A DNA stretch of 64,000 nucleotides. Origin: Candidatus Omnitrophota bacterium. GTDB lineage: Bacteria; Omnitrophota; Gorgyraeia; Zapsychrales; Zapsychraceae. The stretch covers positions 48,196-112,195 of the forward strand of contig JAJDCB010000030.1 in assembly GCA_029261065.1 (NCBI GenBank), given 5' to 3'. The notes under the pieces are model-generated. The model did not search any database. It saw only the letters and a list, made by a program, of their open reading frames with translations, and was not told the origin of the DNA. Position 1 is the stretch's first letter; every line of letters starts with the position of its first letter. The position numbers and the translations under genes are program-made. Positions 14,486-51,619 of this stretch are shown one piece after another.

Positions 14486-14510
14486 TAAGTTTGTTTAGTG
14501 TTCATTAATG

Positions 14511-22937: not shown

Positions 22938-23020
22938 TAGTTGTTATCGCGCACGGTTCCCCGCTTTCGCGGGGATGACACATTTAGTATCAATAGGTTC
23001 ACGCTTTCACGGGAATGACA
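22908..23020. repeat. cluster of three ATyCCC-N8-GGGrAT palindromic repeat units
   Basis: Units are gtcgtccccgcgaaagcggggatc (22908-22931, +), gttccccgctttcgcggggatgacac (22956-22981, inverted) and ggttcacgctttcacgggaatgaca (22996-23020, inverted, degenerate). The same family occurs at 2170, about 26533 and 44276-44372. Confidence 0.7.
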
Positions 23021-34261: not shown

Positions 34262-35701
34262 TTAAGATACCGTCTTTTTTCCTACCGAAATTTTCTGTGA
34301 CTCCCACAAAGAATAATATACCCAAAATAATATTGTTGGTAAGACAGCAAAAAGAATCCTGTGTAAGGTGTTTTGTAGCCACCAACCAATTTCAAAGTAA
34401 GTATTTAAAAAATAATAAAATGTGACAATCCCTGTATAACACAAAAGAAAGATAGGGATAATGATTATTTTAGAAGACAAACATTTTAATCGACTCATAA
34501 TAAGTCCAATAAAGACAATCACCCATAACCCATTCCATTTTGGTTCCAAATAAGTAAACTCTCCCATGGTTTTTCCTACCATTTTATAAAAAGCGTTCCA
34601 TAAGGGGGCGCACATCTCAAAGAAATAAAATCCGAAGACTGTTTTAATGCGGTTTAGGGTAATTGGTTTTGTTGGAGATGTAAGGCCATTAACGAAGGTT
34701 TGATTGTTAGGCGAGTAAAAGATTTCAAAAATAATGGTAGGTAAAAAAGCAAAAAAGGCCCCTAAAAAGAAGGGAATAAGTAATCTTTTTTTGTTAGCCT
34801 CTTTGTTTTTCCAGAAGAAAAAGACTGGAGTTAGAAATAATATGACAAGGGATGCAAGATAACCTTCGCTTTTTGAGAAACTTAATAAACCAAGAAAAAT
34901 ACCACCGAGTAGGGCAAAGCTTTTGTTATTTTCGGTTTTAGCCATAATTAAAGAAAAGAAACTCGCTAATAAATAAAATCCGACAATGTTGTCACTATAT
35001 TGACTGTAAGACAATTTATTTAAAAGGGGCAAGCTCAAAAAAATAAAGGCAATCAAGATAGCATAAACAGATTGTGTGAGGTGTTTTAGGCTGTAATACA
35101 AGAGGCCTAAGCCTAAAATGGTATAAGCGTAAGAAGAGAAGACGGGAACTTTATAGATGGCTTCACTCTGGAACACCCAACCCCAAACATTGACGAGGGG
35201 AAAGAGGAGTGGGTAGTGAGGGCTTGATCGCCATAGAATAGGATCAAACATGTTTTTCCAATTTTCTGCTCCTAAGAAAATAAATTTAGCCTTTAAATTC
35301 CAAACCTGCCACGCATCCCAACCCCCATAAGCGTAAAAATGGGCTTGATACCAAAGTGGAACAGAGGCTCCTATAATGAGTATTAATGGGATAACATTAA
35401 AGGCATCTTTGGGCTGAAACGTTATTAATGGAAGATTATTTTTTTTAATAAGGAATAAAAGGAGAATAGATAGAGCTAGAAAAACAATTCCATGAATAAT
35501 AAGAAGGGCTGTTGGTTGAAAACGATTGAGAAAGATTAACGAAAAGAAATTAATATAAGCACTGAGTCCTAATCCAAGGCCACCGGCAAGCATCAATTTA
35601 AGCATTCGTTCTAGAGAGTGCTTAAGAAATAGGATATGAATAAAAAGATAGCCTATTAGAAGAGAGATAACAAAGGGAAGATAGATAAGTAGTGTTTTCA
35701 T
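34262..35701 (-). CDS. GT-C-fold-like polytopic membrane protein (ArnT/PMT/YkcB-like putative glycosyltransferase), paralog A
   Basis: About 12 TM helices. Acidic first-loop motif YGGWDAW and HYPLLFPLVNVW shared with its paralog at 36120-37487. Confidence 0.45.
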   Translation of the reverse strand: MKTLLIYLPFVISLLIGYLFIHILFLKHSLERMLKLMLAGGLGLGLSAYINFFSLIFLNRFQPTALLIIHGIVFLALSILLLFLIKKNNLPLITFQPKDAFNVIPLILIIGASVPLWYQAHFYAYGGWDAWQVWNLKAKFIFLGAENWKNMFDPILWRSSPHYPLLFPLVNVWGWVFQSEAIYKVPVFSSYAYTILGLGLLYYSLKHLTQSVYAILIAFIFLSLPLLNKLSYSQYSDNIVGFYLLASFFSLIMAKTENNKSFALLGGIFLGLLSFSKSEGYLASLVILFLTPVFFFWKNKEANKKRLLIPFFLGAFFAFLPTIIFEIFYSPNNQTFVNGLTSPTKPITLNRIKTVFGFYFFEMCAPLWNAFYKMVGKTMGEFTYLEPKWNGLWVIVFIGLIMSRLKCLSSKIIIIPIFLLCYTGIVTFYYFLNTYFEIGWWLQNTLHRILFAVLPTILFWVYYSLWESQKISVGKKTVS

Positions 35702-36123
35702 TGTCTTTGAGCGATGACGATTCCAAATTGATTGCGGCCAAGTGCTATTGCTTTAATTTTGTTCATCTCTAAATGGGCAACCCCATCGGATGAGCAGGCA
35801 AAAATGATATATTTATGATTTAAGTTGTTAAAATCTAACACAATGGGAGCTAAGGCGAATTGTGCGTGTGCAAAAAGTTTTGCGTTCTTTGGATCATCCA
35901 TGTCTTTGTCTGTGTAATATCCCATATATTCGACATCTTTTAAAAATGCCTCAATCCCTGCAAATTGATAACCCACCACATTAAAATCCAGAATTTTTTT
36001 ATAATTGTAAATGCGGCGAATTTCCTCTTTGAGTACGACGCTATTTGTTATCGTTAAGACGATAAGTGCTAAACAAAATAAAAATTGAGGGACAGTTCTA
36101 GGTTTTACGCGTGAGAAATTCAT
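35698..36123 (-). CDS. small membrane-anchored partner protein, paralog A
   Basis: 141 aa, N-terminal TM. The motif AQFALAPIVLD is shared with the 142-aa paralog (AQYFLAPTILE). 4-bp overlaps on both sides. Confidence 0.4.
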   Translation of the reverse strand: MNFSRVKPRTVPQFLFCLALIVLTITNSVVLKEEIRRIYNYKKILDFNVVGYQFAGIEAFLKDVEYMGYYTDKDMDDPKNAKLFAHAQFALAPIVLDFNNLNHKYIIFACSSDGVAHLEMNKIKAIALGRNQFGIVIAQRQ

Positions 36124-37487
36124 GTGTTTTCTATTTTTTTATTTTGGGGCCAATATACATAAAAAACATGAAATAGGATGGCCGGTAACAGATAAAAATA
36201 AATTCTAGGCAAAGAATAAGGGATCCACCAGTTAAGTCGGGTCTGTGTGCTGACTAAATATATAAAGATTATGATGATGAAGTAGCTCAAGAAAAAAAGA
36301 GTAACCCATAAGGTTTCTTTTTTTAAAAATTTAAATAATTTGGTAATCACCATGATAAGGATTAACATCCATATGTAACACCATTTTTTGTGAATAATTT
36401 CTTTACCTAAATAATCAAAAATAACGGCTAGACGATTGACGTTGATCATTTGTAATCCGGTTTGAGAGATGTTTGGTAAGATATCGCTATTAGGAGGTGC
36501 TAGAAATAACTTAAAGATAATGGTTGGTAAACAGGCTATAAGAAGTGTTATCAGAAAAAGCACATAGCAGGGCAGGTTGCTTTTTTGTTTGTTGCGTTGT
36601 TGCCAGAGTCGAATGAGAAAGATAACGGATAGTAATGCAGCAAAAACAATGCCTTCATTTTTTGCAAAGGTTAAGAATCCTAAATTTAAACCAGCTAGAA
36701 TAGAGATAGCAGGGTTTGACTCTTTATCGAGGAGATAAAAACAAATAAGGCTTATCAAGACAAACAAAGCAATAAGGATATCCGCATATTGTTGTGTGGC
36801 GCTAAATGCAAAATAAGGATGAAAGCCTAAGATAAGGGTCGCAAGTAGAGCATAGCCTTTTTTGATAAACAATGATAATCCTGTGTACATAAACATCGCA
36901 CAAGAGACGGTCAGCAGTATGCACGTGATAAACGGGACATAAAGCATGTGGGTATGAGAGAAGCTATTAAGCCATACATTGATAAGCGGCAATAACAAGG
37001 GATAGTCGGGGTGTGTGTGCCAAGAAAGGTTTGTTAGAATGTCGTCTAAGGGTGCACTACTTAGAAGTAAAAATTTCATTTTCATATTCCACATCGCCCA
37101 AGCATCCCATTCTCCATGAGGGTGGACGGATGCCACATAGTAATAAAGAGCAATAAGAAGTGTGAAGGCACAAATGACACTATAAGAAAAGAAAGAAAGT
37201 TTGTGTATGCGAAAGGGGTTGAGTAAGGTTCTGATGTTTTTGTTTGTTTTTAAGTTAAGTAGGATGACGCCTAAGAGGCTTAGAAGATTAAGACCTACAA
37301 TCAGCCAAGCATAAAATTTGTTAAAGAGAAGAAAGACAAAGAATGTCAGATAAGCCGAGAGACATAGGCCTGTGATGATAGATAAGCTTAAGTGTAGGAG
37401 GCTTTGATAGTATCGGGTTTCTTTGAAAATAAGCGAAAGGCTAAAGTACCCGAGGAGAAAAGAAATTAAGTGTGCGATGATAAACAT
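36120..37487 (-). CDS. GT-C-fold-like polytopic membrane protein, paralog B
   Basis: HGEWDAWAMWNMKMKF and HPDYPLLLPLINVW are collinear with the 479-aa paralog. Confidence 0.45.
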   Translation of the reverse strand: MFIIAHLISFLLGYFSLSLIFKETRYYQSLLHLSLSIITGLCLSAYLTFFVFLLFNKFYAWLIVGLNLLSLLGVILLNLKTNKNIRTLLNPFRIHKLSFFSYSVICAFTLLIALYYYVASVHPHGEWDAWAMWNMKMKFLLLSSAPLDDILTNLSWHTHPDYPLLLPLINVWLNSFSHTHMLYVPFITCILLTVSCAMFMYTGLSLFIKKGYALLATLILGFHPYFAFSATQQYADILIALFVLISLICFYLLDKESNPAISILAGLNLGFLTFAKNEGIVFAALLSVIFLIRLWQQRNKQKSNLPCYVLFLITLLIACLPTIIFKLFLAPPNSDILPNISQTGLQMINVNRLAVIFDYLGKEIIHKKWCYIWMLILIMVITKLFKFLKKETLWVTLFFLSYFIIIIFIYLVSTQTRLNWWIPYSLPRIYFYLLPAILFHVFYVYWPQNKKIENT

Positions 37488-37489
37488 TG

Positions 37490-37918
37490 TTATTTTCGTC
37501 TTAAGAGTAAAGCTTGTCCATATTCGTTGTTGGTTGTGCGCATGGCATTGAGCGTTTTAATTGTTTTAACAATATAAGGTGGATCCTCAGAGTCAATGAT
37601 ACTAAAGAGATGCGAGTCATCTTGCAACTCAAGAATAGTTGGCGCTAAAAAATATTGGGCCTGAAGAAGGATGCCGTCATTATCTTCTCGTGTAATAGCT
37701 TTGCTGGTTAGATAGCCGGCCCTTTTTTCGTTTTTAAGAAAAGGTTTAAATGTTTCAAATTGTGTGCCTGGTTCAAGATAAACGGGTAGGTTTAAATTTT
37801 CATGGTATTTCTTAATGCAATAGACGCCTGCATGAAAAATATTGTAAATGATTAAACACAGGCAAAGAGAGGCGATTGCTCCATTGAGGGAGAAGAGATA
37901 TTTGAGGGCCTGACGCAT
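37490..37918 (-). CDS. small membrane-anchored partner protein, paralog B
   Basis: 142 aa, homologous to 35698-36123. Confidence 0.4.
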   Translation of the reverse strand: MRQALKYLFSLNGAIASLCLCLIIYNIFHAGVYCIKKYHENLNLPVYLEPGTQFETFKPFLKNEKRAGYLTSKAITREDNDGILLQAQYFLAPTILELQDDSHLFSIIDSEDPPYIVKTIKTLNAMRTTNNEYGQALLLRRK

Positions 37919-37955
37919 GGACTTATTTTACAATTGTTAAGGAATTGTGTGGTAA

Positions 37956-39644
37956 TTATTTCAACTTTTCTTGAATCTCTGCGATCAGGTTATGATCAAA
38001 TTCATATTCTAATTCTTTGGCACGTAGGATGTGTGTTAATGCTTTTGGGTAATCCTTTTTGTGTCTATAAATTTTCGAAAGAAAATAATGCCCTTTTCCT
38101 GAGTCTTTATTCGTTTCTATGGCTTTAAGCCCTGATACTAAAGCCTCATCGTATCGATTTGATTTGATATATAAAAGACACTTATTAATAAGAGCTTTGG
38201 TGTATTCGGGATCATATTTAAGAGCTAAGTTGTAATTAACAACGGCGAGATCATATTTTTCTGAGTTTTGATATACAAGCCCAAGGTTGTAATGAGCATT
38301 TACATATTTAGGACGAAGCTTGACGGCTTTAGTAAAATCGGCGATCGCTAAATCGTATTGCTTTTTGCGAAGATAGATAACGCCTCTGTTATTAAGGATG
38401 AGAGGCGTGTTGGAAGAATATTCCATGGCTTTATCCCAAACCTTACCAGCATCTTTCCAGACTTTGTTTTGAAAGTGTGTTCGTGTGCCCAGTAATCCTA
38501 AGATGATGACGATACAAGTTGAAGCGATAAGAAAATGTTTTTGTTTGCGTTTTTTTGTTTGGGTTAATAATTGATCGGCTAGAGAACCTAATAAAAGACA
38601 GAGCCCTAAGCTGGGTAGGTACATAAAGCGATCAGCCACAACACTAACATGAACTTCTTCGGCCATGCGTAATAGGAAAAAGATGGAAAAGTAATAGTAG
38701 AGAAGAGCAAATAGGACTAAACGGTTTTTTCGAAAGCGAATTAGCAAATAGATAATAAGGGCAAAGACAATGACAGCAATGTTGTAATGAAGGTGATCAA
38801 ATCCAATGGGTTTGGGTAATTCATAAATTGGGCTTAAGTGAATGGGCAGGAAGAACTTTTGAATGTAAAATGTAAATGACCAGGTCCAGATCATGATTGC
38901 TTGGATAAAGTCTTTGGCTGGGACCCTCGCGTTAATTAAATAGGTAACTGCCGCGACAGGAACGATATAGAAAAAATGAGGAATTTTTTCTTTTAGAACA
39001 TTAAATGTGATCTTTCGGCCATGGTACCAGTCGAGGACCAGGAGAATAAAGGGTAAACTTAAGGCCATGGATTTTGCCAAGATGCTTAATAATCCTGCTA
39101 ACATTGATAAGATGAAAAATTTAATTTTTTTGTTGTCAAGATAATGCCAATAACTGCATAAGGCTAACATATAGAAAAAGGCATAAAGGACATCTTTTCT
39201 CTCCGTAATCCAAGCAACCGATTCGACATGCATCGGATGAATACCAAAGAGAAGGGCTGCCAGAAAAGCAGCCCGTATGCTGAGCCCCATCTGCAGGGCC
39301 AAAAGATAAATGAGGCCGCAGACGGCAACGTGTAAAAGGATGTTATTTAATATATAGAGAAAAGGCTTATCTTCAACGAAATGCCATTCTATGGCAAATG
39401 ATAAGACGCTTAAAGGAGCGTAAGTCTTTGTGACAGTTGATTTAAAGATATTTTTGATGCTCTGGAAACTAAGATGATGGACATCTACATTATCTGTCAC
39501 ATAAACATCATCATCCCAATTGGTGAATTCGTTTCCTAGATTTGAGGAAAAAAGGACAAATACAATGATTCCTAAGCAAATAGCCGTTAAAATGGCCTTT
39601 TTTTTGGGGATCGGGGGCGTAATAGTCTTAGATCGCTTTTTCAT
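37956..39644 (-). CDS. TMTC-like membrane glycosyltransferase: N-terminal GT-C/PMT-like TM domain + C-terminal TPR repeats
   Basis: Conserved N-terminal FTNWDDDVYVTDN (FxxDD) motif, about 10 TM helices, and a C-terminal run of TPR units (AHYNLGLVYQNSEKYDLA...). Confidence 0.55.
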   Translation of the reverse strand: MKKRSKTITPPIPKKKAILTAICLGIIVFVLFSSNLGNEFTNWDDDVYVTDNVDVHHLSFQSIKNIFKSTVTKTYAPLSVLSFAIEWHFVEDKPFLYILNNILLHVAVCGLIYLLALQMGLSIRAAFLAALLFGIHPMHVESVAWITERKDVLYAFFYMLALCSYWHYLDNKKIKFFILSMLAGLLSILAKSMALSLPFILLVLDWYHGRKITFNVLKEKIPHFFYIVPVAAVTYLINARVPAKDFIQAIMIWTWSFTFYIQKFFLPIHLSPIYELPKPIGFDHLHYNIAVIVFALIIYLLIRFRKNRLVLFALLYYYFSIFFLLRMAEEVHVSVVADRFMYLPSLGLCLLLGSLADQLLTQTKKRKQKHFLIASTCIVIILGLLGTRTHFQNKVWKDAGKVWDKAMEYSSNTPLILNNRGVIYLRKKQYDLAIADFTKAVKLRPKYVNAHYNLGLVYQNSEKYDLAVVNYNLALKYDPEYTKALINKCLLYIKSNRYDEALVSGLKAIETNKDSGKGHYFLSKIYRHKKDYPKALTHILRAKELEYEFDHNLIAEIQEKLK

Positions 39645-39844
39645 AATTCCATAAGCATATCATTTTTTAGGCCAAAAGCAAAGAATTGATTAGAGGTCAT
39701 TTAAAAGAGCCCTTAATGGTGTTCGTTTCTTAAGAGTACGTATTTTTCCTTGTATCCCATATGTTTAGGGGCTAGAATAATGACCTAACTTAAGTGTTTC
39801 TCCCTTTTTTTAATGAGATTTTTTAAAAAAGTATCCAAAAGTGT

Positions 39845-41524
39845 ATGAAACGTAATATTTGGTTTTTATGTATTGGCCTCATTATCGTTACTGGTATTTT
39901 TGCTAGAGTATATGATTTGAGTGGTCATTTTAGCCATATAGATGATATTGGTGTTGCCAAAACGATACTCGATCACAAGCTCGCTGATAAATCTCCTTTT
40001 CTAGCCGTTCCTTCCCGTTGGACATTCGCCCCTTTTCAATATTTTATTACCCCTTTTTTAGTCTCTATTGATCACACCTATCGTCAGCTTTTATTTTGGG
40101 GTCGTTTGCCTTCCTGTTTTTTTGGGATCTTAGGGATATTTTTTATGATTCAGTTTTATCGCCTTTATGAAGGTGATTTTTCTTATAAGACTCTTGTTCC
40201 GTTGTTCTTTTTTTGCTGTACCTGGGAAAACATCATATTCTCGAAACTTATGTATAATTATGCATTGGCTGTGACCGCATTCGTCGTATTGCTGATCCTT
40301 TATATGGATTATTTAAAGAAAATGAACTTTACTCTTAAAAAAGTTCTTTTTAACAGTTTGTGTTTAGGGGCGTTATGTTGGATGCATTATATTTTTCTTT
40401 ATTTTGTTCCTGTGTTTTATTTGTGTACATTTTTATATGCTTGCCAGTTCACGGAAAATAAGGGCAAAGTTGTTTTACAATATTGTTTAGGTGGGATCGT
40501 TGTCATTGTGTCTGTGTTTCCTTTGTGGTTTCTTTTTCTTCGGAAATTAATAGCCTCTGGACATTATGGGTTATATGGTTGGAATAGTGGAATTGATAAA
40601 GAATTTGTTTTTCATCTCCCAGAGGCGGGCTTCTTTCACGATATAGGTTATGCCGTTTCTTTTTTCTTTAAAAATTTCTTCTATATTTTTCAATTAAACA
40701 CAGGGTTTTTCCCAAACACACACTCCATTTTCCTACCTTTAAGTATAGTATTTCTTATTTTCTTTGTAATTGGGTTTTTTAGATTATTAACTCACAAAAA
40801 TTTGCATAAACGCTATTTAGGAATTTTCTTTGTTGTAACGATAATTGTATGGATTCTTTTAGTATGTACGCAGCGTCTTACTTTTTCACCAACGCGACAT
40901 AATTTTATTTTTATGCCGTTAATTGTTATTACACTGACCGAAGGGCTTTACTTGGTGCTTAAGGAGATTGGAAAGCGGATCGGGAGAAGTCATTTTAAGG
41001 ATTGGGGACAAGCAGTAATAATTGTAGGGTTGTTAATTTTGTTTGGATGTCATTATCAAACATTTCTTATCGAACGAAAAGATCGGTTAAATGAGCAAGA
41101 GATTTTAAAAATAGTTAAAACATACAATGTTGATACCATTATTCTGGCTGTTTGGACTCAACAAGTTGAGATGATGAAGAGTATTCGAGATCATTTTCAA
41201 TTTTATGAAACAGGATTTCGTGAAGATGCCAATATCTCGAAGGGGCCATCGACATATAAAAGGATTGCTTGGATTAGTCATCGAGATAAATTTAGTCCCA
41301 AATCTTACGAAAGGGCGAGATCAGCTGTAAATCATTATATTTATTACACTAATCCTAGACGTGTTAAGCGTAATAAGAAAGAATTGTCGTTGTTAAGATA
41401 TACTTTTAGATCTTATCGGGTGATTTATAAAAAGGTTATTGATTCAGATGTCGAACTCGAATTTGATAATAGAACACATAATGGAACGAATAATTTGTAT
41501 ATCTATATATTAGAGAGAAATTAA
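39845..41524 (+). CDS. polytopic membrane protein, GT-C-like (putative glycosyltransferase)
   Basis: 559 aa. First-loop acidic motif SHIDDIGVA and more than 10 TM helices. Confidence 0.4.
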   Translation: MKRNIWFLCIGLIIVTGIFARVYDLSGHFSHIDDIGVAKTILDHKLADKSPFLAVPSRWTFAPFQYFITPFLVSIDHTYRQLLFWGRLPSCFFGILGIFFMIQFYRLYEGDFSYKTLVPLFFFCCTWENIIFSKLMYNYALAVTAFVVLLILYMDYLKKMNFTLKKVLFNSLCLGALCWMHYIFLYFVPVFYLCTFLYACQFTENKGKVVLQYCLGGIVVIVSVFPLWFLFLRKLIASGHYGLYGWNSGIDKEFVFHLPEAGFFHDIGYAVSFFFKNFFYIFQLNTGFFPNTHSIFLPLSIVFLIFFVIGFFRLLTHKNLHKRYLGIFFVVTIIVWILLVCTQRLTFSPTRHNFIFMPLIVITLTEGLYLVLKEIGKRIGRSHFKDWGQAVIIVGLLILFGCHYQTFLIERKDRLNEQEILKIVKTYNVDTIILAVWTQQVEMMKSIRDHFQFYETGFREDANISKGPSTYKRIAWISHRDKFSPKSYERARSAVNHYIYYTNPRRVKRNKKELSLLRYTFRSYRVIYKKVIDSDVELEFDNRTHNGTNNLYIYILERN

Positions 41525-43588
41525 ATGTTAAACCAAATAGGATTGGATAGACTTTTGTATAAAGGGTTTGGATTGCAAACAAAGAAGGCGCAGGTTGCTT
41601 TTTTAGTGATACTGGCCATTAAAGTGTTGGTGATGATTCTATTTTCTTCAGATTATCAGAATCGCCTTTTTATTCCTTTTGTACAATATTTTATCGAAGT
41701 CTCTGGTAATCCTTGGGATTATTTCTATGCGCAAGGGAGATATGATCAATTCCCATATTCACCTGTTATGCTTTACTTTTTATCTATTTGTTATGCGCCT
41801 TTTTATTTATTAGGAGCTACCCATTCTTTATTAGGCCAGTTTTTCTTTAAATTACCAACGCTGTTTGCTGATCTCACCATTTTTTATTTATTGTGTCGTA
41901 TGTTTGAAGACAAAATGAAGGTGATGATTTATTATTTTGCAACACCTATCATTATTTATGCCTGTTATATGCATTCTCAGTTGGATCTTATACCAACGGC
42001 ATTACTTTTTTTATCGGTTTATTTATTAACTAAACGAAACTGTATCACCTCAGCGCTTGTATTCGGTTTGGCCGTGTGTGCCAAATTACATGTTGTTGCA
42101 GCTTTCCCGCTCCTGCTTATTTATTTACTAAAAACACACAAATTAAGAGGTGTTATGACTTTTTTATTCATAGCACCGTCAGTGTTTTTGATTATTGTTT
42201 TTCCTTTTTGGACAGAAGGTTATCAGCAGTTGGTGCTTAATAATTCCAAGCAAACGTTGATTTATGATTCTTACATCGCTGTAGGCAACCTGAAAGTATA
42301 CTTTACCGTTTTGTTGGTGGCCATTTTTTATGCGCGCGTCAGTGCTTTTCGTAAGATGAATAAAGATCTGCTCTACACATTTTTGGCCCTTATTTTTTCA
42401 ACGTTTGTATCATTGGCCCAACCCTCGCCGGGATGGTATGTGTGGTTGTTTCCTTTTCTTAGTATCTTTTTTATAAAATTTCATGAAAAAGCTCAACATA
42501 TTATTCGCTTATATGTGGCACTAAACGTGATGTATTTAGTTTATATGTTGCTTTTTTATTTACCCGAGTATCATGATCTTATTTTCTTGAAAACACCTAT
42601 TCATTTTAAGATCGATATTGAGAAATATCGTAATGTTAGTTTTACATTGCTCGAAGCTGTATTAATAGCGAGTATGTATGCTTTTTATAAGTTTGGAATC
42701 AGAAGTAACTTTTATTATAAGAAAAATACACCAGGCGTTATTGGGATTTCTGGTGATAGTGCCGCCGGTAAAACGACGATCCTATCTGATATAAGAAAGC
42801 TTTTTGGCCATCGTGTTTTAGAGTTAGAAGGGGACGCTGATCATAAGTGGGAACGCGATGATGAGCATTGGGAGGAGTTAACGCATTTAAATCCGAAAGC
42901 CAATTATCTTCATCGGCAATATAATGATATTCTTAATCTTCATAATCGTAATGCTGCTTTTCGTTGTGATTATGATCATAGTACGGGTAGGTTTACAAGT
43001 TCAAGAAAAGTAAGGGCAGATGACTATATTGTTTTAAGCGGACTACATGCTTTTTATCTTCCTAAAATGCGTAAGATTATTGATTTAAAAGTATTTGTTG
43101 ATACAGATGAAGGGTTGCGTCGATATTGGAAGGTTCAACGGGACACACGTGATCGTGGACGTAAAGTCAAAGATATCTTAAAGCAGATGGACCAGCGTGC
43201 TTTAGATGTTAAAAAATATATTCACCCTCAATATGATTTTGCAGATATTGTTGTTCAGTACTTTACGGATGATCCTATTAAATATGAAGAGCGTAATGCC
43301 AGGTATCATATGAAGTGTAAGGTTATTCTTGATTCAAACGTTTCTCTTCAAGCGATTGTTCATCGATTAGAAACAAAGCTTGATGTAACTTGGGACTATT
43401 CTCAAGATTTAAAAAATCAAAGTCTTATTGTGGATGGATGGCTTGAAAAAGAATATATCGCAAAGATGGCCCAAGAATATATAGTCAATTTAGAAGAATT
43501 GTTGGGTGATGATCCTATTTGGTTGGATGGTTACCGAGGTCTTGTTCAGTTTATGGTGTTGTTAATGTTAAGTGAGAAATTAAAATGA
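41525..43588 (+). CDS. fusion protein: N-terminal polytopic membrane domain (GT-C/DUF2029-like) + C-terminal uridine-kinase/PRK-family P-loop kinase domain
   Basis: C-terminal 230 aa: Walker A GISGDSAAGKTT and ...VLSGLHAFYL...VFVDTDEGLRRYWKVQRDTRDRGR...YDFADIVV, collinear with Udk. The N-terminal 400 aa has about 11 TM helices. Confidence 0.6.
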   Translation: MLNQIGLDRLLYKGFGLQTKKAQVAFLVILAIKVLVMILFSSDYQNRLFIPFVQYFIEVSGNPWDYFYAQGRYDQFPYSPVMLYFLSICYAPFYLLGATHSLLGQFFFKLPTLFADLTIFYLLCRMFEDKMKVMIYYFATPIIIYACYMHSQLDLIPTALLFLSVYLLTKRNCITSALVFGLAVCAKLHVVAAFPLLLIYLLKTHKLRGVMTFLFIAPSVFLIIVFPFWTEGYQQLVLNNSKQTLIYDSYIAVGNLKVYFTVLLVAIFYARVSAFRKMNKDLLYTFLALIFSTFVSLAQPSPGWYVWLFPFLSIFFIKFHEKAQHIIRLYVALNVMYLVYMLLFYLPEYHDLIFLKTPIHFKIDIEKYRNVSFTLLEAVLIASMYAFYKFGIRSNFYYKKNTPGVIGISGDSAAGKTTILSDIRKLFGHRVLELEGDADHKWERDDEHWEELTHLNPKANYLHRQYNDILNLHNRNAAFRCDYDHSTGRFTSSRKVRADDYIVLSGLHAFYLPKMRKIIDLKVFVDTDEGLRRYWKVQRDTRDRGRKVKDILKQMDQRALDVKKYIHPQYDFADIVVQYFTDDPIKYEERNARYHMKCKVILDSNVSLQAIVHRLETKLDVTWDYSQDLKNQSLIVDGWLEKEYIAKMAQEYIVNLEELLGDDPIWLDGYRGLVQFMVLLMLSEKLK

Positions 43589-44304
43589 GAGAGATCCCTT
43601 GGAGTCCTATAACTGGTTTATTGTTGGATTTGGATAATACGTTATACGATTACAACAAAGCACATCAACCAGCTTTACGAGAAGTTGTTCAGTTTTTATC
43701 TCAAAAGACTGGAGTTGTTAAAGAGGATATAGAAAAAGAATATGGTGTTGCTCGTGGGATGATTCATCAGCAGTTAAAGGGTAAAGCATCAAGTCATAAT
43801 CGTTTACTGTATTTTCAAAAGTTATTAGAAAATATAAATAAACCCATCATGCCTTATGCCTTAGAAGCGTATGATTTGTATTGGGATGTGTTTATTGAAC
43901 ATATTGTTTTGTTTGATGAGGTGATGTCTTTTTTAGAGAAAAATCAGGATAAAAGGATTTGTATCTTAACGGATTTAACAGCTGATATTCAGCATAAGAA
44001 GTTGCATAAGCTTGGATTAAGTTCTTATATTCACGCCCTTGTAACAAGTGAAGAAGTGGGCGTTGAGAAACCTGATCGCGGGATGTTTGAATGTGGGTTA
44101 AAGAAGTTAGGATGTATGAAAGAAGAGGTTTGTATGATCGGGGATAACTATGAGAAGGATGTGATGGGAGCGGTTGAGTTGGGTATGAAAGCGATTTGGG
44201 TGAATAAGGAGGGGGGGGAGCGTAGGGAGAGAGCTCTGGTTGTGGAGGTTGAGGATTTAAATTTTTCTTTAATGAGTTCCCCGCTTTCGCGGGGACGACA
44301 GTAG
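43585..44304 (+). CDS. HAD-superfamily phosphatase
   Basis: Motif I LLDLDNTLYD, motif III K, motif IV GDNYEKDV. The last about 10 codons (SSPLSRGRQ) come from palindromic repeat unit 44276-44300. Confidence 0.65.
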   Translation: MREIPWSPITGLLLDLDNTLYDYNKAHQPALREVVQFLSQKTGVVKEDIEKEYGVARGMIHQQLKGKASSHNRLLYFQKLLENINKPIMPYALEAYDLYWDVFIEHIVLFDEVMSFLEKNQDKRICILTDLTADIQHKKLHKLGLSSYIHALVTSEEVGVEKPDRGMFECGLKKLGCMKEEVCMIGDNYEKDVMGAVELGMKAIWVNKEGGERRERALVVEVEDLNFSLMSSPLSRGRQ

Positions 44305-44372
44305 TATGCGATCTCTGTTTTCGCGGGGACGACAACTATACTGTCATCCTCGCGAAAGCGGGGATCCGTGCG
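44276..44372. repeat. cluster of palindromic repeat units (gttccccgctttcgcggggacgaca; half-unit gttttcgcggggacgacaa; tgtcatcctcgcgaaagcggggatccgtgcg)
   Basis: Same ATCCCC-N8-GGGGAT family as at 22908-23020. It spans the end of the HAD gene and the start region of the next gene. Confidence 0.7.
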
Positions 44373-44395
44373 GTTTTACTGTTCAAAGAGTAACC

Positions 44396-46042
44396 ATGCA
44401 AATTATAATCCCTATGTCCGGCGTAGGCAAGCGTTTCATTGACGCTGGCTATAAAGATGTTAAACCGTTAATCGAAGTGGACGGTTTGCCTATCATTGCA
44501 CATGTTATCAACATGTTTCCGGGTGAAAATAATTTTACTTTTGTCTGCAATAAAACGCATTTACAAGAAACGCCAATGGAAGAAATTTTAAAAGGTCTTG
44601 CTCCTTTTGGAAAAATTATAGGGATCGAACCTCATAAGAAAGGTCCTGTCTATGCGGTGGCAGAAGTGTTTGACGCAATTGATGAAAGGGAGGAGACAAT
44701 CGTTAACTATTGTGATTTTTCAAAGTATTGGGATTATGATGGCTTTCTTTCTCATACAAGAGCGCGGCAGGCTGATGGTGCGATAGCAGCGTATAAGGGG
44801 TTTCATCCTCATATGTTAGGTTCTACCAATTATGCCTTTATGCGCGACGATCAACAATGGCTTTTAGAAATTCAAGAGAAAGAGCCGTTTACGGATAATC
44901 GTATGCAAGAATATGCTTCTGATGGAACGTATTATTTTAAAAACGGCGGACTCGTAAAAAAATATTTTCAGCAATTGATGGATGAGGATATAAACCTTAA
45001 AGGAGAATATTATATAAGTTTGGTCTATACGTTAATGCTGAGAGATGGTCTTAAGTCTTCTGTTTATGAAATACAACATATGTTGCAATGGGGGGAGCCT
45101 GGACATTTACAAGAGTATCAACAATGGTCAAAATATTTTTCTAAAATGGTTGATGAGACAAAAAGCATTATCAATAATGAAGAGACGATTAATCTAATAC
45201 CTTTAGCTGGACGTGGACAACGATTTGTTGATGAAGGCTATCAAACACCAAAACCTCTTATAGATGTCAGTGGAAAACCAATGATTGTTCAGGCGGCCTC
45301 TTATTTGCCTCAATCGGGGGCGCAAACTTTTATTTGTTTAGAAGATCATCTAAAAGAATATCCTATCAAAGTTGCTCTTCTAGAAGCCTATCCCCAAGCC
45401 AATATTGTTTCCCTTAATGAAGTTACAGAAGGTCAGGCGTGCACGTGTGAGAAAGGAATAAGAGAAGAGGATTATGATAAACCGTTGTTTATTGCCGCCT
45501 CAGATAATGGAATGATATGGTCTGAAAAAAAGTTGCAATCCTTATTGGATGATACCTCAATAGGTTGTCTCGTTTGGAGTTTCCGGCATCATCCTTCAAG
45601 CGCTCAAAATCCTCAAATGTATGGTTGGATTAAAACGGATGAGAAAGAAAATGTTTTAGGCGTCTCAGTTAAAGTTCCAATTTCAGATGATCCGTTTAAT
45701 GATCATGCCATCATCGGGGCTTTTTATTTTCGTAAAGCCAGATTTTTTATTGATGCATTAGAACGACTTTATAAGAGTGATGTTCGTGTTAATAATGAAT
45801 TTTATGTCGATAGCTGCATTAACGAAATTGTGGCCATGGGTTTAAAGGCAAAAGTCTTTGAGGTGGATCATTATATCTGTTGGGGAACGCCGAATGATTT
45901 AAAAACATACGAATACTGGCAAAGTTATTTTCATAAAAGTGATCAACATCCGTATTGTTTAGAGAAAGATCGGAGAATGGAGTTAAGTAAATTGAAGGAT
46001 TATGAAAAAAAATATTCTTCTTTTAAACAGGAGCACAATTAA
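44396..46042 (+). CDS. tandem double nucleotidyltransferase (two sugar-phosphate/alcohol-phosphate NTP-transferase domains, LicC/IspD-like)
   Basis: Duplicated N-terminal signatures IIPMSGVGKRF...KPLIEVDGLPII and LIPLAGRGQRF...KPLIDVSGKPMI. Start placed at MQIIIPMSG (ATG 44396), because the upstream 30 codons are repeat-derived. Confidence 0.55.
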   Translation: MQIIIPMSGVGKRFIDAGYKDVKPLIEVDGLPIIAHVINMFPGENNFTFVCNKTHLQETPMEEILKGLAPFGKIIGIEPHKKGPVYAVAEVFDAIDEREETIVNYCDFSKYWDYDGFLSHTRARQADGAIAAYKGFHPHMLGSTNYAFMRDDQQWLLEIQEKEPFTDNRMQEYASDGTYYFKNGGLVKKYFQQLMDEDINLKGEYYISLVYTLMLRDGLKSSVYEIQHMLQWGEPGHLQEYQQWSKYFSKMVDETKSIINNEETINLIPLAGRGQRFVDEGYQTPKPLIDVSGKPMIVQAASYLPQSGAQTFICLEDHLKEYPIKVALLEAYPQANIVSLNEVTEGQACTCEKGIREEDYDKPLFIAASDNGMIWSEKKLQSLLDDTSIGCLVWSFRHHPSSAQNPQMYGWIKTDEKENVLGVSVKVPISDDPFNDHAIIGAFYFRKARFFIDALERLYKSDVRVNNEFYVDSCINEIVAMGLKAKVFEVDHYICWGTPNDLKTYEYWQSYFHKSDQHPYCLEKDRRMELSKLKDYEKKYSSFKQEHN

Positions 46043-46755
46043 TGGCTAAGAAAAAACTTTCTATTGTTGTTCCTTGTTACAATGAAGAAAAAAATATTCC
46101 TCTTATTCTTAATCGCTTTCTTAAAGTTTTAGGTCGAGCTGATATTGAAGTTATTTTGGTCAATAATGGATCAACGGATGATAGTGAGAATGTTTTAAAG
46201 GAATTATTACCTCAGTATCCTTTTGCAAGATCGGTTAGAGTTGAAGTCAATCAAGGTTATGGTTTTGGTATTATTGCCGGGCTTAATGAAGCTGTTGGTG
46301 ATTATATCGGTTGGACGCACGCAGATATGCAAACAGATCCTAATGATGTGATGAGAGCGTTGGCTATCATTGAAGAAAAAGGGAGTCCATTAAACATTTT
46401 TATTAAGGGAGACCGCCGAAATCGACAATTGTTTGATCAAGTGTTTACCTGGGGGATGAGTTGTTTTGAGTCAATGTATTTGGGGAAACGATTATGGGAT
46501 ATTAATGCGCAACCAAATATTTTTTCTCGGTCATTTTATTCAACGTGGAAAAATCCTCCACATGATTTCTCGTTAGATTTGTATGCTTTATATATGGCTA
46601 GGCGGCAAGATATAGAAGTTGTTCGATTTGAAGTTGTTTTTCCCAAACGGATTTACGGTCAATCCAGTTGGAATACAGGATTAAAATCAAAAGGTAAGTT
46701 TATTAAAAGAACACTCGATTTTAGTGTCTCTTTAAAAAAGAGATTAAAAGTATGA
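46042..46755 (+). CDS. GT2 family glycosyltransferase, Dpm1/GtrB-like polyprenyl-phosphate sugar synthase
   Basis: LSIVVPCYNEEKNI with DxD-like NNGSTDDS. Short soluble catalytic-domain size (237 aa). Confidence 0.65.
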   Translation: MAKKKLSIVVPCYNEEKNIPLILNRFLKVLGRADIEVILVNNGSTDDSENVLKELLPQYPFARSVRVEVNQGYGFGIIAGLNEAVGDYIGWTHADMQTDPNDVMRALAIIEEKGSPLNIFIKGDRRNRQLFDQVFTWGMSCFESMYLGKRLWDINAQPNIFSRSFYSTWKNPPHDFSLDLYALYMARRQDIEVVRFEVVFPKRIYGQSSWNTGLKSKGKFIKRTLDFSVSLKKRLKV

Positions 46756-47357
46756 TTTACATCGCACATCGTATCAACTCTAAAGAAGAGTTAAAAAAAT
46801 TACCTCAAGAATTTGGTGTTGAATTAGATTTGCGTGATCATGGTGAGCAACTCATTGTTCAACATGACCCTTTTAAAGATGGAGAAAATTTTGAAGAGTA
46901 TCTAGGAGAATATCAACACGGGCTTATGATACTTAATATTAAAAGCGAACGCATTGAACATCGTGTTTTGGATTTGCTTGAAAAATATGCTATTAAAGAT
47001 TATTTCTTCCTCGATTCATCTTTTCCTATGGTTTATACATTAAGCCAATCGGGCGAGCACAATGTCGCTGTGCGTTTTTCGGAATTTGAAGGGATTGATA
47101 CTGTTTTAGCTATGAAAAAACAAGTCAATTGGGTTTGGGTCGATTGTTTTACAAAAATGCCTTTGGATCGAGATAAAAGTTTAGCTATTAAACAAGCGGG
47201 TTTAAAAATATGTTTAGTTTCTCCAGAGTTGCAAGGCCGAGATGATCAAATAGAGGCGTATGCCAAAGAAATTCTGGATGCTTCAATAGATGTTGATGCT
47301 ATTTGTACAAAAAGTTACAATATTGAGAGATGGCAATCCATTCTTAAACGAGCATAA
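46752..47357 (+). CDS. glycerophosphodiester phosphodiesterase (GDPD)-like domain protein
   Basis: IAHRIN...ELDLRDHGEQLIVQHD matches the GDPD TIM-barrel N-terminal catalytic His/Asp pattern. 201 aa. Confidence 0.45.
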   Translation: MIYIAHRINSKEELKKLPQEFGVELDLRDHGEQLIVQHDPFKDGENFEEYLGEYQHGLMILNIKSERIEHRVLDLLEKYAIKDYFFLDSSFPMVYTLSQSGEHNVAVRFSEFEGIDTVLAMKKQVNWVWVDCFTKMPLDRDKSLAIKQAGLKICLVSPELQGRDDQIEAYAKEILDASIDVDAICTKSYNIERWQSILKRA

Positions 47358-47360
47358 ATT

Positions 47361-48431
47361 ATGAAACAAGAAATTACGATAAACGATCCTTTAGAAAAAT
47401 ATCAGAAGGAGCTTTCTGATATTAAGTTTGCTCTTGATGCTTCGACCATTGTTGCGATGACCGACCAAAAGGGCAAGATCACTTATGTTAATGATAAGTT
47501 CTGCAAAATATCTCAGTATAGTCGTGATGAACTCATAGGAGAAGATCATCGCATTATTAATTCGAACCATCACCCTAAAGAGTTTTTTAAAAATTTGTGG
47601 GATACAATTAAAAAGGGAGAGGTTTGGAGTGGAGAAATTAAGAATAGAACGAGAAGGGGGACTTATTATTGGGTTAGCACGACCATTGTTCCTTTTCTAG
47701 ATTTTGAAGGTAAGCCCTATCAGTATGTGGCTATTCGTCATGAAATAACAAAACGTAAAGAGATGGAGGCGGCTGTTAAGCAGTTGCCACAACGCATTAT
47801 TCATGCGCAGGAAAAAGAAAGAGAAGGGATCTCGCGAGAAATTCATGATGACTTAGGGCAATCCTTGGCTATGCTAAAGATGTCGATTCAGTCGACGATT
47901 CATAATGATCAACTGAGACCGGAAATAGCGTCATACGAGAAGATATTGCAATATCTAAATAAGATTATTGATAAAACTCGCCATTTAGCTTCTGGCTTAA
48001 GGCCTTCTACATTAGAGGTTGTTGGATTAACGACAGCTTTAAAAACTCTTATTAACGATTTTAAGACGTATTCTTCAATTGAAGTTCATTTTCATTGTAT
48101 TGATCTAGAAGATTTTAATTTTAAAGGTGAGGTGATAAATATTTACAGAATTGTTCAAGAAGCCTTAAATAACATTACTAAACATTCTCAAGCGAGTACT
48201 CTTAACATTGATATTAACTATTGTGATCAGATGTTAAATCTTAGCATTAAAGACAATGGAGTTGGCATGGAGATAGAGAGTAGTTCTTTTGAAAATAGTG
48301 TAGTTGGTGGCTTGGGGCTTACGACGATAAAAGAACGTGTTAGCATGCTTAAAGGAGAAATGTTCATTAAATCAAAATCTAATCAAGGAACAAAACTTTT
48401 GTTTCGTATCCCAGTTGATAAGAAAGGTTGA
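47361..48431 (+). CDS. PAS sensor histidine kinase (HisKA_3 / NarX-type)
   Basis: PAS ([26 protein letters not shown]), H-box [17 protein letters not shown], and HATPase N/G boxes ([18 protein letters not shown]). Confidence 0.75.
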
Positions 48432-49081
48432 ATGTAATGGATCGGTTACGTATTATCATCGCAGATGATCATCAAATATTTAGAGAAGGTTTAAAAAATT
48501 TAATTGAGTCCAACGAGAACTATTCTGTTGTTGGAGAAGCAAATGATGGAGAAAAGCTTTTAGAGCTTGTGAAGCATAAAAAGAGCGATGTGATTATTTC
48601 TGACATATCAATGCCCAATATGGATGGGTTAAGTGCTATAAAAAAAATTTCAGAACAATTTCCAGATATTAAAATCTTAGTTCTTTCGATGCTAAAAGAC
48701 AATGTGCATTTAAAGAATGCCCTTAGTCATGGTGCGGCGGGTTACATTTTAAAAGATGATGCCTATGATGAGTTGCAAATGGCCATTGAGCGAGTGAGAA
48801 AAGGGAAACGATACATATCATCGGCCTTATCACAGTTATTTGTCGAAAGGCATGTTTGTGCAGATAACGATCTTGACGCCCCTTCATTAGAAATTCTTAC
48901 GAAAAGAGAGCGAGAGGTTCTTAAATATGTTGCAAAGGGTTATCCGAACAAGTTGATAGCAAGCAGGCTAAAAATTAGTTCACGCACAGTTGAGGCCCAC
49001 CGTGGTAATCTTTCCAAAAAGCTTGGCATTTTTAACACAGCAGGTTTAGTCAAATATGCCCTTTCTAAAACCCTCCTTTAG
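48428..49081 (+). CDS. response regulator, NarL/LuxR family
   Basis: REC domain (IIADDH..., D in VIISDISMP) + C-terminal LuxR HTH ([36 protein letters not shown]). Confidence 0.8.
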
Positions 49082-49204
49082 TTAAACTTCGTAATAATAC
49101 TTAGATTGTTTGTGGAACCTCCTTATTTCGGATAAGTCCTATTTGTCTTAAAATATTAGTGTAAGGTTAACTTAATAGAGGAATGATTTAAAAAGGATGA
49201 TTTT

Positions 49205-49594
49205 ATGAAAACAAAGATTTTATTAATCGAAGACAATGATGATTTTAGGAATGCGGTGAAGGGCTACTTAAATGAACAAATACTAGATATTGAGATTTTT
49301 GAAGCTTGTACAGGGGAAATGGGTGTAACGAAAGCTTCTTTAGTTAAGCCTGATATTGCTATTGTTGATCTAAACTTGCCGCATGCTAATGGGTTTGAAG
49401 TCATTAAAATGTTGAAAGAAGATCATCCGAATTGTTTTCTTATTGTATTAACCATGCTTGAGGTAGAACAGTTTAAGCAGTTGGCCAAAGAGTTGAACGT
49501 TGTTGATTTTGTTGGGAAAAGTGAGCTTTTTGATCGTCTCGTACCTGTCGTTAATAAATATGTAGAAAAATGCAGAGAAGCCAGTATGGTCTAG
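49205..49594 (+). CDS. single-domain response regulator (receiver only)
   Basis: KILLIEDN...DIAIVDLNLP...VLTM receiver signature. 129 aa. Confidence 0.65.
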   Translation: MKTKILLIEDNDDFRNAVKGYLNEQILDIEIFEACTGEMGVTKASLVKPDIAIVDLNLPHANGFEVIKMLKEDHPNCFLIVLTMLEVEQFKQLAKELNVVDFVGKSELFDRLVPVVNKYVEKCREASMV

Positions 49595-51043: not shown

Positions 51044-51055
51044 AGAGATAAAGCT

Positions 51056-51619
51056 ATGAGTTATTTTAAACACGAAAAAGCGATTGTTCACCCAGAAGCC
51101 GAAATAGGCGAGGGGACACGTTTATGGGCGAACACTAATATTCAGCAGGGCGCTACGATTGGCAAAGATTGTAATATTTGTGATGGAAGTTTTGTAGAGA
51201 GTGGCGCGATTGTTGGTAATCATGTCACGGTCAAACATCATGTTTCTATTTTTGATGGTGTCACGATTGAAGATGATGTATTTATCGGATCCAATATTGC
51301 CTTTATTAACGATCGGTATCCTCGGAGTAATAACGGGGGTGAGTGGACGTTAGAGAAGACTACGGTTAAAGAAGGTGCGACGTTAGGAAGTAATGTTGTT
51401 ATACTTTGCGGGTTAAGTGTTGGGCGTTACGCTGTTGTTGGGGCGGGAAGTGTTGTAACAAAAGATGTTGATGATTACACGATTGTAGGTGGTAATCCTG
51501 CGCGTCAAATGGGTTATGCTTGTGTGTGCGGTAAAAAGTTAGATAAGGAATTATCTTGTAGTTGTGGGAAAAAATATTTATTGAAAGATAAAGCGCTTGT
51601 GATGGATGATCAAAAATGA
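51056..51619 (+). CDS. hexapeptide-repeat (left-handed beta-helix) sugar N-acetyltransferase with C-terminal Cys4 motif
   Basis: Repeating [LIV]G.... hexads (IGKDCNICDGSFVESGAIVGNHVTV...). C-terminal CVCGKK...CSCGKK. Confidence 0.65.
   Translation: MSYFKHEKAIVHPEAEIGEGTRLWANTNIQQGATIGKDCNICDGSFVESGAIVGNHVTVKHHVSIFDGVTIEDDVFIGSNIAFINDRYPRSNNGGEWTLEKTTVKEGATLGSNVVILCGLSVGRYAVVGAGSVVTKDVDDYTIVGGNPARQMGYACVCGKKLDKELSCSCGKKYLLKDKALVMDDQK

Follow-up and report, generated by a model that had tools for sequence, protein, structure and literature searches.

A Widespread, Mobile Gene Cassette with a Phosphoribulokinase Fused to a GT-C-Type Membrane Domain, and Its Proposed Role in Making a Lipid-Linked Sugar Donor

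Gene Content of the Locus

In a 64-kb stretch of the Candidatus Omnitrophota contig JAJDCB010000030.1 (hereafter, the window), the region studied (34262-47357) consists of two compact operons that diverge from a 200-bp spacer (39645-39844). The plus-strand operon (39845-47357), which is the main subject of this work, encodes in this order a polytopic protein of 559 amino acids (aa), a fusion of a membrane domain to a phosphoribulokinase (PRK) domain, a HAD phosphatase, a double nucleotidyltransferase (NTP2), a GT2 glycosyltransferase and a 201-aa protein (p201), and it is a copy of a cassette that is both widespread and mobile. The minus-strand operon successively encodes a 562-aa polytopic/TPR protein, a 142-aa protein with a single transmembrane (TM) segment, a 455-aa polytopic protein, a 141-aa single-TM protein and a 479-aa polytopic protein (Table 1). 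Twelve open reading frames (ORFs) had been listed in an earlier note on this DNA, and all 12 were found at the same coordinates. Essentially its whole domain inventory was borne out as well, the HAD phosphatase, the nucleotidyltransferase halves and the GT2 being confirmed. Among the Pfam families that it had named, PRK, NTP_transf_3 and Glycos_transf_2 were recovered, but neither DUF1736/PMT_2 in the TPR protein nor GDPD in p201.

Table 1. Features of the region studied and of its immediate downstream flank (positions in the window).
Feature	Position	Strand	Remark
PMT-like GT-C paralogue, 479 aa	34262-35701	-	
Single-TM partner, 141 aa	35698-36123	-	
PMT-like GT-C paralogue, 455 aa	36120-37487	-	Pfam PMT
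Single-TM partner, 142 aa	37490-37918	-	
Polytopic protein with C-terminal TPRs, 562 aa, TMTC-like architecture	37956-39644	-	Divergent from the cassette operon
Polytopic membrane protein, 559 aa	39845-41524	+	First gene of the operon; the fusion gene starts right after its stop codon
Membrane domain of the 687-aa fusion, aa 1-398	41525-42718	+	GT-C fold, PIG-M/ALG3/PimE (GT-C_B) type
Putative phosphoribulokinase domain of the fusion, C-terminal, cytoplasmic, aa 401-687	42725-43588	+	
HAD-IA phosphatase	43585-44304	+	4-nt overlap with the fusion gene
REP-like hairpin repeat TTTCGCGGGGACGACA, three copies	44279-44368		HAD-NTP2 spacer
Tandem double sugar-phosphate nucleotidyltransferase NTP2, 548 aa	44396-46042	+	
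GT2, 237 aa, without TM helices	46042-46755	+	ArnC/DPMS/GtrB-like catalytic domain
GDPD-fold (PLC-like phosphodiesterase) TIM-barrel protein p201, cytoplasmic, 201 aa	46752-47357	+	
PAS histidine kinase (HisKA_3) and NarL/LuxR-type response regulator	47361-49081	+	4 nt past the cassette

A Phosphoribulokinase Joined to a Membrane Domain

The kinase domain of the fusion passes Pfam PF00485 with 115 bits (gathering cut-off: 22), and its best NCBIfam family is the phosphoribulokinase PRK07429 (170.6 bits, vs. 81 bits for uridine kinase), while a PDB search retrieves cyanobacterial PRKs at E 1e-29 and Udk at 2e-14. The Walker A P-loop residues (G407, G410, D411, S412, G415 and K416) are invariant. 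In the plant-type enzyme CrPRK, the residues that bind ribulose 5-phosphate (Ru5P) or take part in catalysis are Arg64, Tyr103, His105, Arg159, Asp160 and Arg164 (bioRxiv 10.1101/422709). When aligned via 6hzk, R444, Y483, H485, R539, D540 and R544 of the fusion fall on this set; they are invariant in 27 family members and retained in the E. coli and Azospirillum plasmid proteins described below, which are only 27–29% identical. Moreover, the PRK-specific motifs D-x-x-H-x-x-x-R, Y-x-H and K-x-x-R-D-x-x-x-R are invariant, and the architecture is that of PRK over the whole domain, including the C-terminal region that Udk is without. Judging by its sequence, the kinase domain is thus a phosphoribulokinase, not a uridine kinase, so that its precursor is most likely Ru5P and not a nucleoside. 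The earlier note had described a Udk- or PRK-type kinase fused to a membrane domain: the fusion and the PRK side of this description stand, the Udk side does not, because the PRK residues are invariant, and the catalytic residues, the possible loss of which it had raised, are all kept on closer alignment.

The membrane domain has the GT-C transmembrane fold and is PIG-M/ALG3/PimE-like (GT-C_B type), which corrects the GT-C/DUF2029-like assignment of the earlier note. Its residues D116, D154, K187, W304 and W307 are conserved at about 100% (about 99% for D116 and D154), H150 and Q152 being nearly invariant. GT-C enzymes usually carry a catalytic acid after the first TM segment (TM1). In the fusion family, the corresponding column, occupied by D43 in the window, is acidic in 63% of 204 sequences (D 57%, E 6%, G 24%), while the homologues from the E. 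coli and Azospirillum plasmids have L or H at this place.

The Other Proteins of the Cassette

The HAD phosphatase (Pfam HAD_2, E 2e-22) has intact motifs, with D15, D17, T19, K162, D187 and D192 conserved across 76 members. Its best NCBIfam family, which leads the following one by about 12 orders of magnitude, is the haloarchaeal ribulose-1,5-bisphosphate (RuBP) 5-phosphatase NF053830 (E 3e-45, 154.7 bits), and its best PDB match, N-acylneuraminate-9-phosphatase, is likewise a distal-phosphate sugar phosphatase. The haloarchaeal enzyme is specific for RuBP and shares its operon with a class II aldolase (PMC9700705). We propose that the HAD protein of the cassette is a pentulose-bisphosphate 5-phosphatase.

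In most relatives, a gene for a class II aldolase-like protein sits at the site that is occupied in the window by a cluster of the REP-like repeat TTTCGCGGGGACGACA, a GC-rich CCCCGC-TTTC-GCGGGG stem-loop with five copies in the window vs. 0.01 expected by chance, the copies beyond the cluster lying at 22907-22922(-) and 22965-22980(+). The cluster encodes the last HAD residues as well as a spurious 30-codon N-terminal extension of NTP2, in the form of a “CHPRESGDP”-type peptide. The true start of NTP2 is 44396, not 44306, and the alignment with the Paenibacillus orthologue (61% identity) begins at M31 of the long ORF. Antisense to the HAD gene and extending into the repeat cluster is a Pro/Ser-rich ORF of 147 aa (43892-44335, minus strand), which is almost certainly not a gene. 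As for the aldolase-like protein of the relatives, its Zn His triad and Glu are retained, and it is similar to aldolase domains of the RhaD type and to the uncharacterised 3m4r. An assignment as ribulose 1-phosphate (Ru1P) aldolase is not made, since the haloarchaeal Ru1P aldolase model matches it only at E 0.03.

NTP2 matches Pfam NTP_transferase and NTP_transf_3, and both of its halves keep the P-x-x-G-x-G-x-R-F...K-P and Asp/Lys motifs (66 members). In several Clostridia and archaeal loci (e.g., L036, L040, L047, L065 and L084), NTP2 takes the form of two adjacent genes, and because both are kept when the gene is split, the halves appear to be separate functional units. Its PDB matches are only weak, and it is distant from all known hexose-1-phosphate enzymes. 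For the second half, there is a weak match to an entry with no other name than “putative 6-deoxy-D-mannoheptose pathway protein”, besides faint similarities to IspD and inositol-phosphate cytidylyltransferase.

The GT2 protein (Pfam Glycos_transf_2, E 3e-23) finds its best PDB matches in ArnC (E 1.5e-12), Pyrococcus DPMS (1e-9) and GtrB sll0501 (2e-9), while its NCBIfam scores are all far under the equivalog cut-offs. D46, D95 and D99 are conserved, and identity to the Paenibacillus orthologue reaches 68%. No TM segment is predicted, the C-terminal TM helices of GtrB/ArnC/DPMS-like enzymes being absent. At the family level, the protein would be a polyprenyl-phosphate glycosyltransferase-like enzyme. 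It is always followed by p201 (60% identity to the Paenibacillus orthologue), the model of which has the GDPD TIM-barrel fold with high confidence (predicted local distance difference test score, pLDDT: 95.7). By sequence profile, p201 has no match in Pfam (E up to 5, including GDPD PF03009), NCBIfam or the PDB. Its residues H6, R7, E24, D26, H38 and D39 are invariant (26–32 sequences), and from their order and spacing we take H6/R7, E24/D26 and H38/D39 to be the H-R, E-x-D and H-D motifs of GDPD enzymes. This GDPD-like component amounts to 3,882 protein clusters.

Finally, the 559-aa protein has about nine hydrophobic/TM segments and a C-terminal soluble part of about 150 aa, and the pair D33, D34, directly after TM1, is invariant in 31 homologues. 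A Pfam search of its family found DUF7024 in distant members and nothing else. In profile comparisons with hhalign, the family shows no relation to the fusion family (probability 5%), while the polytopic neighbours of the archaeal loci are linked to it at 95% probability, though indirectly. Paralogues of the 559-aa protein adjoin the fusion in three related loci (L005, L006 and L008). More generally, an equivalent polytopic ORF of 380–1,000 aa lies at most 2.5 kb from the cassette in 70 of the 87 loci surveyed for such neighbours. These ORFs are strongly divergent, and treating them as a single family failed, iterated hidden Markov model searches and clustering having returned 47 clusters with few weak profile links. 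A fast-evolving membrane partner beside a slow-evolving core would fit an acceptor-specific transferase, which makes the 559-aa protein a candidate for an acceptor-specific GT-C-type enzyme.

Conservation, Distribution and Mobility of the Cassette

ORFs were called in 86 related loci and searched with the proteins of the window, along with the aldolase-like and GtrA proteins of Paenibacillus. NTP2 was found in 85 of these loci, HAD in 79, GT2 in 77, p201 in 75, the aldolase-like protein in 74 and a GtrA-family protein, which is also present in both plasmid modules described below, in 27. In the 41 well-flanked loci, i.e., those with at least 4 kb on both sides, the corresponding numbers are 40 for HAD, 39 for NTP2 and for p201, 38 for GT2, 34 for the aldolase-like protein and 12 for GtrA. 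Since the cassette genes are nearly always present in this subset, their arrangement reflects more than chance. The conserved order is fusion, HAD, aldolase, NTP2, (GtrA), GT2, p201, and it is permuted in Clostridia (aldolase, NTP2, fusion, HAD, GT2, p201).

The fusion has hundreds of full-length relatives at 41–60% identity, which come from Omnitrophota, Nitrospirota, Margulisbacteria, Desulfobacterota, Paenibacillus, Dependentiae, Melainabacteria, Spirochaetota and Bacteroidota, the nearest among the matches listed being metagenome-assembled genomes (MAGs) labelled Planctomycetales and Omnitrophota. A scan of genome contigs with the fusion as a single protein returned no matches. With an alignment-derived pattern, a scan of one genome per species yielded at least 528 relatives confirmed by tblastn, of which the best 80 are all full length. 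These best 80 of at least 528 include cultured Paenibacillus, Virgibacillus, Halobacillus halophilus, Allohahella and Leptospira ognonensis, as well as many Lachnospiraceae and Bacteroides MAGs and two archaeal MAGs. The cassette is kept as a block in Bacillota, Bacteroidota, Melainabacteria, Spirochaetota, Campylobacterota, Proteobacteria, Dependentiae, archaeal MAGs and plasmids. Altogether, the linkage of its genes extends over relatives of more than 12 phyla, so that a chance juxtaposition, named by the earlier note as a refuting possibility, can be rejected.

Plasmids carry the cassette as well. In E. coli, a complete eight-gene module adjoining IS26 lies at 6022-14984 of an IncR plasmid of about 33 kb (NZ_CP145712.1, locus L088), in the order NTP2, GtrA, GT2, p201, fusion, HAD, aldolase and a 586-aa polytopic protein. 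It occurs in 2 of 5,426 complete E. coli genomes and also on NZ_JCAPUP010000005.1, and is 100% identical between human stool and bullfrog isolates. In Azospirillum brasilense, plasmid p5 (NZ_CP032350.1, locus L089) carries a similar module at 3757-12933 in the coordinates of that locus. It is surrounded there by polysaccharide genes, namely an ABC-transporter pair, gmd, fcl (GDP-fucose synthase) and GT1 genes, which suggests that the acceptor there is an O-antigen-like glycan dependent on an ABC transporter. No homologue was found in the phage collection.

The Minus-Strand Arm and the Flanking Genes

Of the two large paralogues of the minus-strand operon, the 455-aa protein matches Pfam PMT (27.1 bits, cut-off 22.7), and the 479-aa protein, which has no direct PMT match, is related to it at 29% identity (E 4e-47). 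Each is preceded by a partner of about 141 aa, all four genes being translationally coupled. The partners are paralogous to each other (E 2e-10), consist of one N-terminal TM segment and an extracytoplasmic domain of about 110 aa, and have no family match. The 562-aa protein has a TMTC-type layout, with a polytopic N-domain, an acidic motif after TM1 (W43, D44 and D45, invariant or nearly so) and C-terminal TPRs (Pfam, residues 390–550). Its N-terminal 390 aa have no Pfam match (E up to 5), and neither DUF1736 nor PMT_2 was found in it or in any of 20 homologues. Protein O-glycosylation, which the earlier note had read from this layout, would be a conjectural role. The family of its membrane domain counts 61,955 representatives; with another member at 57806-59668 (21% identity over the membrane domain, E 4e-14), it is multi-copy in this genome.

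The earlier note had regarded the whole 13 kb as one super-locus, a view that did not hold. Among the related loci, the PMT-like paralogues and their partners adjoin the cassette only in L008, and the TPR protein is absent even there. As the collinearity between L008 and the window runs from the Mla genes as far as the downstream GFO_IDH gene, well beyond the locus, the adjacency of arm and cassette in these two genomes reflects common ancestry.

Downstream, the regulator genes at 47361-49081 are outside the conserved core, and in the syntenic L008 a receiver-domain gene is found instead between NTP2 and GT2. The PAS histidine kinase and its response regulator are possibly lineage-specific regulators of the cassette. 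An orphan receiver gene follows the response regulator (stretch 47361-49594). Further on, the stretch 50027-52347 contains three genes, each of them syntenic in L008, the products of which are a GFO_IDH oxidoreductase, a hexapeptide acyltransferase and another short GT2 of 243 aa with only marginal similarity to that of the cassette. These genes may belong to another sugar-modification or lipid-linked donor pathway. A scan for sigma-70 promoters gave 60 matches against 60.6 expected by chance, and no use was made of it.

Proposed Pathway and Alternatives

We consider it somewhat better than an even bet that the cassette makes a lipid-linked donor from Ru5P for glycosylation at the outer face of the membrane, as a system of the Gtr/Arn/PpgS type with a new donor pathway. 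Two lines of reasoning lead to this. The PRK active site, together with the RuBP-phosphatase-like HAD, points to a route from Ru5P through RuBP to a pentulose 1-phosphate, and the combination of GT2 (with or without GtrA) and GT-C proteins is the signature of polyprenyl-monophosphate-sugar systems. Gene content, folds, conserved residues and linkage are shown directly, and from them we infer the chemistry and the acceptor, as follows. The PRK domain would phosphorylate Ru5P at C1 to give RuBP, a substrate indicated by the invariant PRK residues, and the HAD phosphatase would strip the distal 5-phosphate, as suggested by the logic of nucleotide-heptose pathways and by the match to the haloarchaeal RuBP phosphatase. 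In most lineages, the resulting pentulose 1-phosphate might then be remodelled or epimerised by the class II aldolase-family Zn enzyme, while the organism of the window would use the unmodified sugar, since the gene is absent here. NTP2 would make a nucleoside diphosphate (NDP) sugar, the GDPD-fold p201 would carry out some phosphodiester step coupled to GT2, and GT2, by its ArnC/DPMS-like family, would load the sugar onto polyprenyl phosphate. After flipping (possibly by GtrA, which is present in about one third of the loci but not here), the sugar would be transferred by the GT-C domain of the fusion, by the variable polytopic protein or by both. The general idea of the earlier note, in which cytoplasmic activation genes supply GT-C enzymes with donors linked to a lipid phosphate, holds.

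Several observations weigh against this reading. With 170.6 bits, the PRK domain stays under the NCBIfam PRK07429 subfamily cut-off of 236, just as the 154.7 bits of the HAD phosphatase are below the NF053830 equivalog cut-off of 330. Searches with the 559-aa protein gave no Pfam, NCBIfam or PDB profile match that would confirm it as a GT-C protein; no GtrA homologue was found by tblastn in the 64-kb window; and there is no aldolase-like gene either in the window or at the locus in L005, L006 and L008. Besides, fusion and HAD lie apart from the other cassette genes in L005 and L006. Above all, the phosphate of a ketose 1-phosphate is not anomeric, and a plain NDP-1-pentulose could not serve GT2, which leaves at least one step unexplained. 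This gap may be filled by p201 and by the intact second half of NTP2. One way in which they could do so is a quite unlikely scheme, where the free 5-OH of pentulose 1-phosphate would permit closure to a ketofuranose, one half of NTP2 would make NDP-1-pentulose, p201 would shift its phosphate from C1 to the anomeric C2 through PI-PLC-like cyclic-phosphate chemistry, and the other half would make an NDP-ketofuranose as the actual donor of GT2, leading to undecaprenyl-phosphate-ribulofuranose (or to an epimer of it where the aldolase-like enzyme is present) and then to GT-C transfer.

The non-anomeric phosphate is also what gives some weight to a different product, close to the alcohol-phosphate or teichoic-like head group of the earlier note, in which the cassette would activate a pentulose phosphate, or that of a derived polyol, as a CDP- or NDP-alcohol phosphate and install it in phosphodiester linkage as a teichoic-acid-like or phospho-sugar decoration, p201 taking part in the phosphodiester transfer. 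Pentulose 1-phosphate would then resemble CDP-ribitol or CDP-glycerol-type donors, the second half of NTP2 does faintly recall IspD and inositol-phosphate cytidylyltransferase, and the substrates of GDPD enzymes, e.g., GlpQ of B. subtilis, include glycerophosphodiesters and teichoic acids. Yet, the conserved core is devoid of any CDP-alcohol phosphotransferase, LicD, TagF, fukutin-type transferase or reductase, while its ArnC/DPMS-like GT2, GtrA and GT-C proteins stand for glycosyl transfer through polyprenyl-monophosphate sugars, and we regard a phosphodiester-linked head group as unlikely. More credible, though still a minority possibility, is that the donor pathway is the one that we favour but that the fused membrane domain acts as a lipid-binding scaffold, flippase or sensor, by which the kinase would be tethered or regulated at the membrane, with transfer left to the polytopic neighbour of about 550 aa. 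Such a division of labour would account for the Asp after TM1 not being conserved in the fusion family, to the point of being absent from the E. coli and Azospirillum proteins, for the additional fast-evolving polytopic protein, and for the invariant DD after TM1 in the 559-aa family; it would also supply the other flippase needed in the two thirds of loci where GtrA is absent. Against it, the near invariance of D116, D154, K187, H150 and Q152 in the fused domain fits an active site, and 17 of the 87 loci are without an extra polytopic ORF nearby.

Two further alternatives concern the first enzymes. The same three enzyme families as the PRK, HAD and aldolase-like proteins form the haloarchaeal non-carboxylating pentose bisphosphate pathway (PMC9700705), so that they might constitute a catabolic or regulatory shunt from Ru5P through RuBP and Ru1P to dihydroxyacetone phosphate and glycolaldehyde, NTP2 and GT2 activating a common hexose. 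This is very unlikely, because the aldolase-like gene is dispensable (it is missing here, in L008 and in 7 of the 41 well-flanked loci), its product hardly matches the Ru1P aldolase model, NTP2 is far from every known hexose-1-phosphate enzyme, and a shunt would explain neither the fusion of PRK to a GT-C domain nor the strict linkage of GT2, NTP2 and p201 across phyla and plasmids. As for a uridine/cytidine kinase ensuring a local supply of nucleotides, it could be argued from PF00485, which spans both enzymes, and from the many database entries named uridine kinase; in view of the invariant PRK motifs and the higher PRK score (170.6 vs. 81 bits), we reject it as barely credible.

Comparison with Known Systems

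The closest functional analogues of the proposed pathway are Gtr (GtrA/GtrB/GtrC of Shigella and Salmonella), ArnC/ArnT, CsbB/GtcA/YfhO and PpgS-Rv3632-Rv3779 of M. tuberculosis. Shared with them is the joint encoding of a cytoplasmic GT2 that resembles ArnC, DPMS and GtrB, of GT-C-fold membrane proteins and, in about one third of the related loci, of a GtrA-family protein. In contrast to these systems, the donor would come from a dedicated five-enzyme pathway starting with phosphoribulokinase, kinase and GT-C domain form one covalent polypeptide, GT2, itself without TM helices, has an obligatory partner of the GDPD fold, and GtrA is often absent, as in the window. The cassette probably works like a Gtr/Arn-type three-component system, from which it differs in the PRK-initiated donor pathway, the PRK::GT-C fusion, the GDPD-like partner and the frequent absence of GtrA. 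In nucleotide-heptose pathways (HldE/GmhB/HldC and HddA/GmhB/HddC), a kinase produces a bisphosphate, from which a HAD phosphatase removes the distal phosphate ahead of a nucleotidyltransferase. The cassette shares this logic, but its kinase belongs to the PRK family instead of being a GHMP or ribokinase-type anomeric kinase, its substrate is presumably a ketopentose, and the phosphate of the product would be at C1 of a ketose and not anomeric. With Calvin–Benson PRKs (cyanobacterial/archaeal 6hzk, 9qko and 5b3f), the fusion kinase has in common the fold, the P-loop and the residues for Ru5P binding and catalysis, whereas it stands behind a GT-C domain of about 400 aa, in heterotrophs and on plasmids, next to envelope genes.

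Extracytoplasmic glycosylation with pentose donors by three-component systems has a precedent (PMC11127046). In the known pentofuranose systems (ORF12/14/15 of Citrobacter youngae, GT136; decaprenylphosphoryl arabinose in mycobacteria), phosphoribosyl pyrophosphate is used by a UbiA-type polyprenyl phosphoribose synthase, and flipping is due to MATE or SMR proteins (PMC11127046). Similarities to the proposed cassette pathway include a polyprenyl-phosphate donor derived from a pentose, external transfer by a GT-C enzyme and an optional enzyme diversifying the pentose. The difference lies in the absence of a UbiA-type synthase from the cassette, which has PRK, HAD, nucleotidyltransferase and GT2 genes, i.e., a route through a nucleotide-sugar intermediate. 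The haloarchaeal pentose bisphosphate pathway, for its part, is catabolic and obtains RuBP from nucleosides via R15P isomerase (PMC9700705). It resembles the cassette in that its phosphatase family is the best NCBIfam match of the cassette HAD, in the class II aldolase-family gene that most cassettes have beside the HAD gene and in the implied RuBP. It is set apart by the glycosylation genes of the cassette, by scores that stay under equivalog cut-offs and by an aldolase-like protein nearer to RhaD-type domains and 3m4r.

The statement of the earlier note that no pathway with this combination of domains had been described agrees with our literature searches. In full text, we found no description of the domain combination, of ketopentose glycans in this connection or of PRK-like fusions, although a prior description is possible, as subscription journals were mostly uncovered. 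In databases, the proteins bear generic names (“uridine kinase”, “hypothetical protein” or “PI-PLC/GDPD family protein”), and there is no NCBIfam equivalog for any of them.

Significance

Phosphoribulokinase is usually treated as a signature of CO2 fixation, while here it is tied to a membrane glycosyltransferase fold and to envelope genes, in a cassette found in heterotrophs of many phyla, including abundant gut Lachnospiraceae and Bacteroides, and on plasmids. One practical consequence is that the cassette would cause false “PRK/Calvin cycle” calls in the annotation of metagenomes. If the proposed pathway is correct, RuBP would be the precursor of a cell-surface sugar. In the ketofuranose scheme, if true, this would be the first known pathway from RuBP to a surface sugar and a biosynthetic role for PRK outside the Calvin cycle, and it would explain how ketopentoses (xylulose and ribulose) are activated for bacterial glycans. 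Since a complete module is carried by a 33-kb plasmid of E. coli, this chemistry is directly testable. More broadly, such a large and mobile cassette, almost wholly unannotated so far, could be an unrecognised source of surface-antigen diversity.

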